From the IMG/VR virus record IMGVR_UViG_2547132281_000014, positions 1 to 40,471 of that record: 40,471 nucleotides of DNA; one strand, written 5' to 3'. The notes beneath the pieces were generated by a model, which was not told the origin of the DNA, made no database searches, and saw only the letters and a program-made list of their open reading frames with translations. Numbering within the stretch: the first letter of the stretch is position 1; every line of letters begins with the position of its first letter. Shown piece after piece: positions 1,369 to 8,807 of this stretch. The position numbers and the translations under genes were made by a program. This DNA is from a virus. Its lineage: Duplodnaviria; Heunggongvirae; Uroviricota; Caudoviricetes.

Positions 1369-1444
1369 GCCGATATAGCTCAGTTGGTAGAGCAGCGCAT
1401 TCGTAATGCGAAGGTCGTAGGTTCGACTCCTATTATCGGCACCA
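1369..1444 (+). tRNA. thrW: tRNA-Thr (anticodon CGU)
   Basis: 76-nt cloverleaf: acceptor GCCGATA/TATCGGC, D-arm AGCTCAGTTGGTAGAGC, anticodon loop with CGT, T-arm GGTTCGACTCC, encoded CCA end. An integrase stop codon lies 14 bp downstream. Confidence 0.96.
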
Positions 1445-5891: not shown

Positions 5892-6326
5892 ATGTCCGGT
5901 AATATCTATACGCTGTACAAATCCCACTGTGAAAATGTTGGAAAGTATCGGGGCATTGAAATCAGTGGGGTAGTGTCATCAGTCGAAATAAGCAAAGTTG
6001 AATCAAGGGCAACATTACTTACTCTTTTGGACCTTGTCTTACATGAGCACCGGAAGAAATTCGGCACTCCCTATAATCAGTTGAATGGGAAAAAGGCTCT
6101 GGTTCACCTTATTCTGATGAAGCATCACTGGATGCCAAAACAGATTAATGAGATGAAATTTGATGAACTTCTTCTTTCAATTCAGGATGAACTCACACTT
6201 GATAAAATAAGCGTAACCGCCCAGAAATTTTTAGATTATCGAGACTGGAGAGCACAAATTCATCACTTTGATGATTTTGACGAAAATGAATGGGATCCTA
6301 ATTTGTCTGCACAATATCTAAAGTAA
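5892..6326 (+). CDS. Hypothetical 144-aa protein, oriented against the early-left operon (moron-like)
   Basis: ATG preceded by AAGGA with 6-nt spacing. AT-rich codon usage unlike the phage core. Mostly helical-looking sequence with an acidic C-terminus (HHFDDFDENEWDP). No family recognised. Confidence 0.55.
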   Translation: MSGNIYTLYKSHCENVGKYRGIEISGVVSSVEISKVESRATLLTLLDLVLHEHRKKFGTPYNQLNGKKALVHLILMKHHWMPKQINEMKFDELLLSIQDELTLDKISVTAQKFLDYRDWRAQIHHFDDFDENEWDPNLSAQYLK

Positions 6327-6504
6327 CATCCTGTGATAAAACCGTGATTTCCTGATCCAGTTTTTTTAAGGAGTCTATTGTTTCCTGTCGATAAGACAGC
6401 ACTTCACGAAGCTGGTTTATAGCTGCCAGCTTCTTTGTCATCCACTCATAAATTTCCTCATCTGTGTAGCCAGGCGCGACGATTTTGGGTTCTGTTTTGT
6501 GCAT
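6298..6504 (-). CDS. Hypothetical 68-aa coiled-coil protein, first ORF downstream of pL
   Basis: ATG at 6504 is preceded by GAGGAG. The track start at 6519 is a TTG and is less likely. The 3' end overlaps the convergent 144-aa gene by 29 bp. Confidence 0.5.
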   Translation of the reverse strand: MHKTEPKIVAPGYTDEEIYEWMTKKLAAINQLREVLSYRQETIDSLKKLDQEITVLSQDVTLDIVQTN

Positions 6505-6563
6505 TTCACATCTCCTCAAGTTATCAGTTACTTGTTGATGGGGACCAGATTGTTAAAGAGCTA

Positions 6564-6586
6564 AGCGTCCTGTAGGGCGCTTTTTT
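6564..6586 (+). terminator. Rho-independent terminator, functional orientation on the + strand
   Basis: AGCGTCC-tgta-GGGCGCT followed by TTTTTT. The stem contains a G-U pair on the + strand that becomes a C-A mismatch on the minus strand. The minus strand also lacks a U-tract. Confidence 0.65.
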
Positions 6587-6668
6587 GTTGCTAACGAATC
6601 ATCCTGGACTTCATATGCCCCAGGCGGCTACTTCGTGGGCGTCCTGCCTGTTCGTTGTCGGCAAAATG

Positions 6669-6710
6669 ATATTGCTACTTAAAGTTGCAAAAATCAACTA
6701 CAAAAAGTAG
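6669..6710 (-). promoter_or_regulatory. Putative pL with two operators (OL)
   Basis: Minus strand: TTGATT (6697-6692), 17-bp spacer, CAATAT (6674-6669). Operators CTACTTAAAGTTG (6675-6687) and CTACAAAAAGTAG (6698-6710) are 23 bp centre to centre. This mirrors the pR/OR layout. Confidence 0.6.
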
Positions 6711-7016
6711 AAGTTAAGGGCATAAAAACGCATTTTGAAATTAATTCATTGAATTTACAGGTAAAATATTTTGGGGGCTATGATCAAAAAATTATATTGT
6801 GAAGTTAGCTGAGTTGTAGAACGTGATGGATTGTTTCATTGTGGCTGAGATCAGTATGTGATCTAGTTAATCATCAAGTGGGGAGAAGTCAATCATGAGA
6901 GTATTGTTGAGTTTTTGGAGGCTAAGTGTAAAACGGTAGGGAATTTACTACTCAATGGATTGTGTGATTTAGCCTCGATAGTAAGAAAACTAGGGCAGGT
7001 CATAGTCAAAAACTTA

Positions 7017-7424
7017 TCAAAACATAAATTTGGCGAGACCTAAAATCGCCAAGCCTGTTGCAACAGTCCATGCGATCTGTTTATTTACGGCTGATGAAAT
7101 AGCGCTGTTGACTTCACTTAGGCTAGGTTTTTTTGACAACTTTTCATCTATATCTATTTGTTTTTGAAGGATAACAGCGACATCGCGTCGGGTGTCGGAG
7201 AGAGCGTTTCGCAAATCACGAATGTCAGCTCTCATCTCTGCGAGATTTGTTTTTATATCCTCAACATTCGCTTCTAACTTAGCGACTCGGGCTTCAAGCA
7301 TGTCATCACCTCCGCCATCTCCACCGTGTCTTCTAATTGTGGGAAGTTCACTATTAAATGGTACTACATTATTTTGCGGCGTCGGCATTTTTTTCATCTT
7401 CCGTTTTTGCTGGGAACTTTTCAT
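7017..7424 (-). CDS. Tail-anchored coiled-coil membrane protein (up to 135 aa; start uncertain), last gene of the cI operon
   Basis: Heptad-like segment LEARVAKLEANVEDIKTNLAEMRADIRDLRNAL. Single hydrophobic helix at the extreme C-terminus (IAWTVATGLAILGLAKFMF). Alternative ATGs lie at 7397, 7388 and 7301; the one at 7301 has the best SD, GGAGGT. Confidence 0.55.
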   Translation of the reverse strand: MKSSQQKRKMKKMPTPQNNVVPFNSELPTIRRHGGDGGGDDMLEARVAKLEANVEDIKTNLAEMRADIRDLRNALSDTRRDVAVILQKQIDIDEKLSKKPSLSEVNSAISSAVNKQIAWTVATGLAILGLAKFMF

Positions 7425-7716
7425 TTACCCAGTTCAAAACTGAAAACGCATTTATATGAATTTCATTTCCACAATTGTTGCATATTAGTGAAAAGTAATA
7501 CTGGTTAGCAGTATCAGAATAAATGCTTTTTTCAGTAAAAACATTCACATAACTACCAAGTTTCATAGTACATGGCATGCCCACATTCGCGCTGACTTGA
7601 GGCACAGTCAATCTGTCGTGTCCACATAGTGTACATTTTAGATATATATTCTTTTCTGAGAAATAAGAGACCAACATATCCATGTTAATCTTTTCGAATC
7701 CCTGCTCACTAGCCAT
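7369..7716 (-). CDS. Zinc-ribbon-like 115-aa protein immediately downstream of cI
   Basis: ATG at 7716 is preceded by AAGGG and lies 15 nt after the cI stop. Two CxxC pairs are present (CTLC and CNNC). No family recognised. Confidence 0.6.
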   Translation of the reverse strand: MASEQGFEKINMDMLVSYFSEKNIYLKCTLCGHDRLTVPQVSANVGMPCTMKLGSYVNVFTEKSIYSDTANQYYFSLICNNCGNEIHINAFSVLNWVNEKFPAKTEDEKNADAAK

Positions 7717-7731
7717 TATATGCCCTTAGAA

Positions 7732-8472
7732 CTATAACCGATTGTATTTTATTGACTCATGAATCAACGCCTTGCCCATTACATAAAGCTGATCCTGCGA
7801 TTTTTCATCGATGTACCATTTCTCATAGGCAGGGTTATCCGAAAGAACGGCTAGCTTGTCACCTTGCATTTGAAGACGTTTAACATGAAAAGTCTTACCG
7901 TAAACGAAAGAGTAAATTCCATCAGTCTGGAAGTGACGAACAGAAATGTCGACAAACAGTCGATCTCCGGAAACGAGAGTAGGGGACATACTATCGCCAT
8001 TTACAGTCATAACCTTAATATCATCCTGAGAACGGTTACCGAAAAGAGAACGGGCATGTTCTGTTGTGAACTCAATGGCGTAGAGCACATCAACATAGTC
8101 TGAAAGCATATAGGTTCCAGGTCCTGCGCTAACGCTAAGATCTAAAACTTCTATCCTGTATACGTCGGGTTTTGTTGGATTGGGGATGCTTGCCATTTCC
8201 TTACATCCTTCTCTCTCGCCAACACCATATTCTAAATATGAAGCCGATACCCCCAGAGCCAACGCAAGTTTATTCATGACAGAGGCACGAGGCTTCGCTG
8301 CGCCGATTGTGTATCGCCGCGCCATTTCATATGTAACGCCAACAAGACTTTTGAGTTGGGTGACAGAAATTCCCTTGTTTGTCATTAACTCGTTTAGTCT
8401 CTTGGCGAAATCTGGATACTTCTGTTCTTCTACCATAGGTAGAAGATTACTCACATCACATACGCTCGTCAT
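7732..8472 (-). CDS. CI-like prophage repressor (XRE HTH plus S24/LexA-type autopeptidase domain)
   Basis: N-terminal HTH (FAKRLNELMTNKGISVTQLKSLVGVTYEMARRY). C-terminal GDSMSPTL...K(R)L Ser/Lys dyad pattern. Divergent from cro across operator repeats. The start is uncertain: ATG 8472 is possibly leaderless, and ATG 8436 is the alternative. Confidence 0.88.
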   Translation of the reverse strand: MTSVCDVSNLLPMVEEQKYPDFAKRLNELMTNKGISVTQLKSLVGVTYEMARRYTIGAAKPRASVMNKLALALGVSASYLEYGVGEREGCKEMASIPNPTKPDVYRIEVLDLSVSAGPGTYMLSDYVDVLYAIEFTTEHARSLFGNRSQDDIKVMTVNGDSMSPTLVSGDRLFVDISVRHFQTDGIYSFVYGKTFHVKRLQMQGDKLAVLSDNPAYEKWYIDEKSQDQLYVMGKALIHESIKYNRL

Positions 8473-8474
8473 TT

Positions 8475-8516
8475 CTATTTTAAGTAGTTGCAATTCGCTA
8501 CTTTAAGTAGCATTAT
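8475..8516 (+). promoter_or_regulatory. Putative pR with two operators (OR); probable divergent pRM
   Basis: TTGCAA (8488-8493), 17-bp spacer, CATTAT (8511-8516). Operators CTATTTTAAGTAG (8475-8487) and CTACTTTAAGTAG (8498-8510) are 23 bp apart. On the minus strand, TAAAAT lies just upstream of the cI ATG at 8472. Confidence 0.6.
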
Positions 8517-8543
8517 CCCCTCTGGATTTCAGAGGAGAAAGAT

Positions 8544-8807
8544 ATGTCATCTCAAAACTACACCGAGAAAGCAGTAAAGGCTGCGGGAAAGTCTTTATCT
8601 GAAGTAGCTCGTCGCTTTGGTTTTAAATCTACTCAATCTGTCGCTAATTGGGTAATTAACAATCAAGTCCCGTCGGAACGAGTTTTACAACTTTGTGAGC
8701 TGGGGAACTGGTCCGTAACCCCCCATGAGCTGCGTCCTGATATTTATCCAAATCCAAATGATGGATTACCAGAGTGCTATTCAAAAGTTAGCGGTTCAGT
8801 TGCGTAA
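8544..8807 (+). CDS. Cro/YdaS-type HTH regulator (87 aa)
   Basis: First gene downstream of pR, with SD GAGGAG. HTH segment SLSEVARRFGFKSTQSVANWV. Confidence 0.8.
   Translation: MSSQNYTEKAVKAAGKSLSEVARRFGFKSTQSVANWVINNQVPSERVLQLCELGNWSVTPHELRPDIYPNPNDGLPECYSKVSGSVA

Follow-up and report, generated by a model that had tools for sequence, protein, structure and literature searches.

The window analysed here is the whole 40,471-nucleotide stretch (positions 1 to 40,471) of the Caudoviricetes record IMGVR_UViG_2547132281_000014, and the subject of this report is a cassette of two small genes that directly follows its cI-type repressor gene on the minus strand. Gene 1 appears to encode a soluble protein of the zinc-ribbon type, and gene 2 a coiled-coil protein with a predicted C-terminal membrane anchor. 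The cassette occupies the place that lambda gives to rexA-rexB, its two genes travel as a pair, and related cassettes combine the same membrane module with different partner proteins. The conservation of both genes identifies them as real gene families, beyond chance open reading frames (ORFs). These features suggest that the cassette may be an anti-phage exclusion or abortive-infection system expressed in the lysogen, the most probable of the roles considered, to which nearly an even chance can be given.

The cassette lies in the rex position of the immunity region

Like rexAB in lambda, the two genes form part of the immunity region and occupy the interval from cI to the left operator. This placement follows from two 57-nt inverted copies, at 6668-6724 and 8461-8517, each of which contains two CTACTTwAAGTAG palindromes; together with the promoter hexamers, they are recognised as the left operator and promoter (OL/PL) and the right operator and promoter (OR/PR). 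As read from the sequence, PR consists of TTGCAA-N17-CATTAT and faces cro (8544-8807, plus strand), and PL, on the minus strand, consists of TTGATT-N17-CAATAT. OL/PL bounds the immunity region downstream of the cassette. The coordinates of all elements are collected in Table 1.

The repressor itself contains the Pfam domains PF00717 (8e-17) and PF01381 and is assigned to phrog_4 in the PHROG database. Its true start is probably ATG 8436, as annotated by the Prokaryotic Genome Annotation Pipeline (PGAP) in genome GB089. This start is favoured because the OR operators (8475-8510) overlap TTG 8493, to which the maximal ORF extends. The length of the repressor varies among PGAP annotations of genomes, being 234 aa in some cases and 253 aa in others.

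The initial annotation had placed the pair in the rex position, 15 nt behind cI, with an overlap between the two genes that would allow joint transcription. All of this geometry is borne out, the position by the inverted copies of OL/PL and OR/PR around cI and the pair, and the continuity by a pattern scan, which found no terminator-like site between cI and the stop codon of gene 2. The layout indicates that the cassette is placed for co-transcription with the repressor in the lysogen. The pattern scan also found no terminator after gene 2, where a 301-nt tail folds like shuffled sequence (z -0.99). The interval of about 290 nt from the gene-2 stop to OL/PL (6725-7016) holds no convincing ORF, Rfam match or intrinsic terminator, and the sole match of the Rfam scan of the window is a tRNA-Thr.

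Table 1. Coordinates of the repressor, the flanking operators and the elements of the two-gene cassette in the window
Feature	Position	Strand	Description
cI-type repressor (HTH_3 + Peptidase_S24)	7732-8436	-	First gene of the lysogenic operon; maximal ORF to TTG 8493
OR/PR region	8461-8517	.	Operators CTACTTwAAGTAG at 8475-8487 and 8498-8510; 57-nt inverted repeat with 6668-6724; direct repeat D5
OL/PL region	6668-6724	.	Operators at 6675-6687 and ~6698-6710; inverted repeats I1 and I6 with the OR region
Gene 1	7369-7716	-	115 aa; begins 15 nt past the cI stop
Gene 2, maximal ORF	7017-7424	-	135 aa; start-dependent overlap of 20-56 nt with gene 1
Gene 2, conserved core (putative short isoform)	7017-7301	-	94 aa; from family alignment, AF2 and heptad/hydropathy analysis
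Gene 2, coiled coil	7137-7298	-	Residues 43-96
Gene 2, tail-anchor transmembrane segment	7020-7076	-	Residues 117-135; stop codon 7017-7019
Gene 2, N-terminal partner-linked peptide (MPTPQNNVVPF...) and Gly/Asp linker	7302-7388	-	Long isoform only; start overlaps the gene-1 stop
Internal Shine-Dalgarno sequence GGAGG	7309-7313	-	Within Gly codons, 7 nt ahead of ATG 7301-7299 (Met42)

Architecture of the two proteins

Gene 1 has two zinc knuckles, C28xxC31 (7624-7635) and C79xxC82 (7471-7482), and lacks a hydrophobic segment. It matches phrog_4293, a PHROG of unknown function, with an E value of 5e-31. An exhaustive HMMER search among 1.84 billion proteins yielded 30 representatives of its family, and in 31 family sequences, with identity down to ~21%, residues C28, C31, C79 and C82 are invariant together with W96. 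What had first been described as a zinc-ribbon-like look is, in effect, a four-cysteine site kept throughout the family. The CpXC model (PF14353) scores gene 1 at 18.3 bits (E 0.0025), under its gathering threshold of 25.4 bits, and a comparison of the gene-1 profile with PDB sequences returned just CxxC noise of the Fur/S27e type.

Gene 2 matches phrog_3556, also a PHROG of unknown function (E 1.5e-47), and its family comprises 84 clusters with names almost all from Enterobacterales. Members share a common build. A variable N-terminal peptide of ~25-45 aa leads through a Gly/Asp linker to a Met and a coiled coil, both of which are conserved, and the protein closes with a C-terminal tail-anchor transmembrane (TM) helix. 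Conservation begins at the linker (GGxGGGDD-MLEARVAKLE...), and the 25-45 residues that precede it differ by partner.

In the protein of the window, residues 43-96 (L43-L96) follow a single clean heptad register of eight heptads, in which 14 of the 17 a/d positions are L, I, V or M, against at most 8 in the other registers. The sole hydrophobic stretch comprises residues 117-135 and reaches the C-terminus. An AlphaFold2 (AF2) model shows residues 1-39 as disordered and two helices, 40-97 and 102-134; a model of two helices only, it was not used for a fold search. The heptad coiled coil and the single C-terminal TM helix that had been noted in gene 2 are thus found again by heptad and hydropathy analysis and by AF2. 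Such a tail-anchor topology, as modelled, would leave nearly all of the protein in the cytoplasm.

A putative internal start in gene 2

The start of gene 2 had been left ambiguous among 7424, 7397, 7388 and 7301. The first of these is rejected, as its Met is replaced by Lys in a relative with an 89% identical gene 1 (L098) and is unconserved even in close relatives. The position chosen by PGAP is 7397. The Met at 7388 (MPTPQNNVVPF...) and the NV[VI]PF motif are conserved across the cassettes with a gene-1-type partner (family A, see below), and it is this start that the comparison of relatives supports for the long form. Position 7301 also stands, as a likely second, internal start.

The Shine-Dalgarno sequence in front of Met42 is newly noticed here, and it suggests that gene 2 specifies two in-frame products. 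The evidence comes from 45 unique relatives, which are related to each other, so that the following start-site counts are non-independent: GGAGG with a 7-nt spacer precedes the near-invariant Met42 in 26 of 45, codon -4 is GGA in 31 of 45 compared with ~21% GGA at the remaining Gly codons of the run, and all 45 have at least 26 open codons in the frame upstream of Met42 (median 39 vs 0 and 28 in the other frames). Because this upstream frame is always open, the long form of gene 2 is regarded as coding. It is therefore somewhat probable, to judge from the conservation of these signals, that a conserved internal ribosome-binding site gives rise to a long form with a docking peptide and to a short form of 94 aa.

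Obligate pairing and modular exchange

A small soluble partner gene, overlapping or abutting, always stands ahead of gene 2, and at least four unrelated families fill this role. Partner family A is the zinc-ribbon family of phrog_4293, to which gene 1 belongs. Family B is Cys-poor, ~130-175 aa long, and includes phrog_5893 and divergent forms. Family C1 corresponds to phrog_4231, and family C2, which includes HK544c104, to phrog_12039. A partner gene is present in all untruncated loci. In the opposite direction, a gene-2-like ORF begins at the gene-1 stop in 13 of 13 further loci found via gene 1 alone, in a search that used a closer subset of sequences, the full alignment being too divergent. 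The pairing of partner and gene 2 is obligate in both directions.

Natural recombinants reveal how the cassette is divided. Locus L011 carries the coiled-coil/TM module of the window at 86% identity, but its partner belongs to family B and its N-terminal peptide is unrelated. Locus L097 represents the reciprocal case, with a gene 1 that is 97% identical and the same N-terminal peptide through MLEARV, followed by a shorter coiled-coil/TM module of a different class; its DNA homology to the window ends at 7285. The N-terminal peptide co-segregates with gene 1 in L097-L099. Because of the recombinants L011 and L097, the partner and the N-terminal peptide are considered one unit, and the coiled coil with its TM helix the other. 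The alignments indicate that recombination at Met42 exchanges the coiled-coil/TM module independently.

Cassettes of both partner families show a short hydrophobic-Pro motif, located 15-25 residues ahead of the Gly linker, in forms such as NVVPF, NVIPF, VFNLP, AQLRP and FGDFP (7340-7388 in the window). This recurrent element is a possible short linear docking motif.

Distribution and genomic context

The cassette occurs at 98-100% identity in 16 of 5,426 complete E. coli genomes (14 of them at 99% or more), where PGAP calls two hypothetical proteins. A scan of GTDB genomes with the family alignment confirmed no relative, and a rerun with the core protein found 4 species representatives only. 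Genomic context was established for 82 loci with gene-2 relatives, 80 of them from IMG/VR and two from E. coli. In 70 of the 82, one small gene separates the gene-2 relative from an upstream repressor gene of the same orientation; non-repressor settings account for 10, and the remaining two loci are cut at a contig end. Nine of these 10 are moron copies within virion or tail gene clusters, and the one in Salmonella phage S107, for instance, precedes the tape-measure gene by two genes; the tenth is a cassette in an immI-like arc/mnt-ant region (L039).

Direct evidence for the rex position comes from a group of loci that carry lambda cI itself, of which L073, L075 and L080 were aligned to lambda, at 93-98% on the nucleotide level. 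Their homology to lambda extends across cro-OR-cI, breaks off 4 nt short of the cI stop and sets in again precisely at the rexB stop, from where it continues through OL. Because it stops and restarts at those borders, an 812-bp pair replaces rexA-rexB exactly. Another version of the pair occupies the rex slot in HK544, a wild phage of lambda immunity, and in the Stx1 phage VT1-Sakai (ECs2991/ECs2992). The depositors of HK544 annotated Timm after the pair, and the literature searched mentions this phage solely in the Tai paper, where it served for testing. A proteome list of O157:H7 (PMC3936929) includes ECs2991, which is the partner protein in Sp15.

The pair is also found outside lambda-type immunity regions. 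In the P22-like Salmonella phage UPF_BP1, it is situated downstream of mnt, before gene 16, and fills the orf59a-sieA slot of P22. In relatives of the window phage that have other immunities (SfV, vB_EcoM-689R6), the interval from cI to OL contains at most a terminator, and for this reason the pair is seen as accessory cargo. The argument from the rex slot is thus stronger than was apparent at first, as relatives of gene 2 replace rexAB exactly, occupy the rex slot of HK544 and VT1-Sakai, and occupy the sieA slot of P22.

Additional small genes accompany some of the cassettes. The S107-type copies in tail clusters are followed by a gene for a 117-aa predicted lipoprotein (L017 5383-5736, L088 4380-4733) that belongs to phrog_7441, of unknown function, and are preceded by genes of the Rha/KilA-N type, and with these neighbours they make up a small accessory island ahead of the tape-measure gene. 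In the Klebsiella-type loci L021 and L022 (4169-4318, plus strand), a 49-aa ORF with a hydrophobic helix lies between cI and a C2-type cassette, and it may encode a third small membrane component.

Comparison with known systems

Scans with Pfam, NCBIfam and PADLOC gave no match above threshold for gene 1 or gene 2, and partner families B, C1 and C2 likewise had nothing above threshold in the family-library scans and no PADLOC match. The PADLOC analysis that the initial annotation had recommended points to no known defence system; with PADLOC-DB 2.0.0, the cassette gave coiled-coil noise alone (LmuB, 9e-05, over the coiled coil of gene 2). The RexA and RexB models of PADLOC, which score the lambda proteins at 9e-110 and 9e-61 in a positive control, did not match gene 1 or gene 2, and BLASTP against the Rex proteins was null (E 3.0 and 0.52). 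Similarly, no PHROG or Pfam match to Sie families was obtained; PADLOC has no SieA model, and the comparison with SieA was made by PHROG and Pfam. The earlier impression that neither protein resembles RexA/RexB or SieB is in this way substantiated. The gene-2 profile, compared with PDB sequences, retrieved generic coiled coils only.

Lambda RexA-RexB is the closest parallel in arrangement. Each pair is positioned between cI and OL for transcription with the repressor, and in both a soluble protein comes first and a membrane protein second, whereas sequence similarity is absent. RexB has four TM helices. Gene 2, in contrast, is not polytopic, with one tail-anchor TM helix and a long cytoplasmic coiled coil, and the partner families of its cassettes are interchangeable. 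RexA is a 279-aa, RdgC-like protein (PMC11077077), whereas gene 1 is a zinc-ribbon-type protein of 115 aa.

P22 SieA offers another parallel, since a family member resides in the orf59a-sieA slot of UPF_BP1, encodes an inner-membrane protein and adjoins the lysogen-expressed mnt. However, SieA is a single polytopic membrane protein (PMC10883804), and the cassette consists of two genes with a tail-anchored product that has no similarity to it. P22 SieB/Esc and lambda S107/S105 are comparable in a different respect, as the internal Shine-Dalgarno sequence and ATG of gene 2 predict long and short products that share a membrane module; sequence similarity is lacking here too, and the internal start of gene 2 is only predicted. 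BstA consists of one KilA-N-domain protein without a membrane anchor, and it shows no PADLOC similarity to gene 1 or gene 2. The cassette resembles it in location, as BstA is reported to be defence cargo directly downstream of a prophage repressor gene (PMC8585504). Overall, the predicted cassette resembles Rex-type systems in logic and location, yet shares no protein family with them.

Proposed function and alternative explanations

The case for an anti-phage function is built on position, obligate pairing, modularity, the dual start and the proteome listing of a related cassette. According to the proposed mechanism, the partner would act as the specificity (sensing) subunit, docked on the N-terminal peptide of the long isoform, and the tail-anchored coiled coil would be the constant membrane effector. 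A cue from the infecting phage would alter the complex of partner and anchor, whereupon the coiled coils would come together in the inner membrane and damage it, leading to a Rex-like abortive infection. The membrane-lesion step specifically is less certain than the anti-phage role and rather unlikely. The short product that starts at Met42, devoid of the docking peptide, could serve as a free effector or as an in-frame regulator. Precedents for such in-frame pairs of effector and regulator are lambda S107/S105 and P22 SieB/Esc.

A broader proposal can be advanced only tentatively, being rather unlikely in its full form. It regards the cassettes as a modular family of prophage exclusion systems of Enterobacterales, in which a two-isoform anchor, one isoform regulating the other, would be recombined at Met42 with small interchangeable sensors, each bringing a docking peptide of its own. 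Such systems would compete for the rexAB and sieA slots and would constitute a natural 'rex allele' of HK544-like phages and of the Stx1 phage of Sakai.

Several observations weigh against an anti-phage function. Homology to a characterised defence, exclusion, toxin or holin protein was not found, so that the functional assignment draws on position and architecture. The literature searched, which did not cover the most relevant defence screen, contained no functional study or phenotype data for any family member. One tail-anchor TM helix gives little ground for postulating a pore. The use of the internal start is deduced from codon bias, to which shared ancestry of a recombination-prone junction could add. 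Furthermore, lambda RexA is also reported to modulate the lysis-lysogeny switch (bioRxiv 10.1101/2021.04.19.439022; PMC11077077), and because of this activity a rex slot does not guarantee defence.

Other functions at the same membrane or in the same operon have to be considered. Superinfection exclusion at the stage of DNA entry, of the SieA or HK97 gp15 type, would involve a complex at the cytoplasmic face of the inner membrane that hinders incoming ejection or tape-measure proteins and so keeps the phage genome out, while the cell survives. SieA, which resides in the inner membrane, stops injection via E-proteins (PMC10883804), and the cassette not only fills the P22 sieA slot adjoining the ejection-protein gene 16 but also precedes the tape-measure gene by two genes in S107-type phages; interchangeable partners could here determine target specificity. 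Nevertheless, 70 of the 82 copies are in repressor operons, away from injection genes, gene 2 has essentially no periplasmic part, and similarity to SieA is absent in PHROG and PADLOC searches, the latter lacking a SieA model. An entry block of this kind is distinctly unlikely. A role in prophage maintenance or in the switch, by tuning repressor cleavage and induction or as an addiction pair resembling toxin and antidote, would agree with the location inside the immunity region and the placement for co-expression with cI. Precedents in the same slot exist in 434 Hex (PMC3564112) and in the switch bias of RexA, and a small membrane protein with a shorter in-frame isoform could act as toxin and regulator. 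This role is quite improbable, given that cassettes exist far from repressors, in virion or tail clusters and in an immI-like region, that interchangeable and fast-evolving partners are more typical of conflict systems, and that the domain searches found no DNA-binding or RecA-related domain.

The initial annotation had likened gene 2 to XhlA-like or holin-like membrane proteins, and an accessory function in the lytic cycle of the phage itself, of the XhlA or holin/antiholin type, would follow from this likeness. XhlA (PF10779), a lysis-associated membrane protein of PBSX, does have an N-terminal coiled coil and a C-terminal TM helix, one UniRef cluster of gene 2 is named 'Hemolysin XhlA', and the putative dual-start motif, with its conserved GGAGG-N7-ATG and open upstream frame, is compatible with holins, for which such motifs are typical. 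The likeness proves to be architectural only. The gene 2 of the window has no match to PF10779, class-2 and class-3 relatives reach 16.1-17.9 bits (E 0.0035-0.013) against a gathering threshold of 34.7, and 0 of 28 family members match XhlA at E <=0.01; the PHROG matches to 'hemolysin' and 'holin/anti-holin' are weak (E 0.004-0.011, with 0.011 for holin), and every match falls under curated cut-offs. Moreover, the cassette lies outside the lysis cassette: a separate cluster of a lambda-type holin, a GH24 endolysin, DUF2570 and an Rz1-like LysC is located at ~16.4-17.7 kb on the plus strand, as taken from the annotation of a 99% identical genome. The position of the cassette favours expression in the lysogen, to which a lysis factor would do harm, and a lysis function is accordingly very improbable.

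Other features of the window

A 144-aa ORF (5892-6326, plus strand) is located on the opposite strand in the early-left region, and its entire length is covered by a match to phrog_5286 (E 3.5e-90). On the plus strand, hairpins resembling terminators lie near it at 6408-6433 and 6563-6582. This ORF is hypothetical in phage vB_EcoM-689R6 and uncalled by PGAP in GB089, and it may be a further moron beside the immunity region. Homology to L111 827-1822 places another gene, annotated as 'SDH family Clp fold serine proteinase', at ~14.9-15.9 kb on the minus strand, with the Q antiterminator on one side and the holin on the other; on this homology, it is a moron-like insertion in the late-operon leader. 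The tRNA-Thr (CGT) at 1369-1444 (plus strand) adjoins the integrase end, which agrees with the proA-tRNA-Thr integration site in GB089.

Significance

If it functions in something other than defence, the cassette remains a component of immunity regions that is widespread, conserved and unexplained. If it is a lysogen-expressed defence system, the repressor-linked exclusion systems, so far few, would gain a new protein family, and the rex slot of lambda and the sieA slot of P22 would emerge as interchangeable hotspots fed by one pool of cargo. HK544 is a cultivable phage of lambda immunity with a relative of the cassette in place of rexAB, which makes isogenic swaps with lambda straightforward, and the Stx1 prophage of O157:H7 Sakai likewise has such a relative. 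The modular layout and the internal start offer handles on how small membrane effectors are silenced in lysogens, a question that is still open for RexB-type systems.

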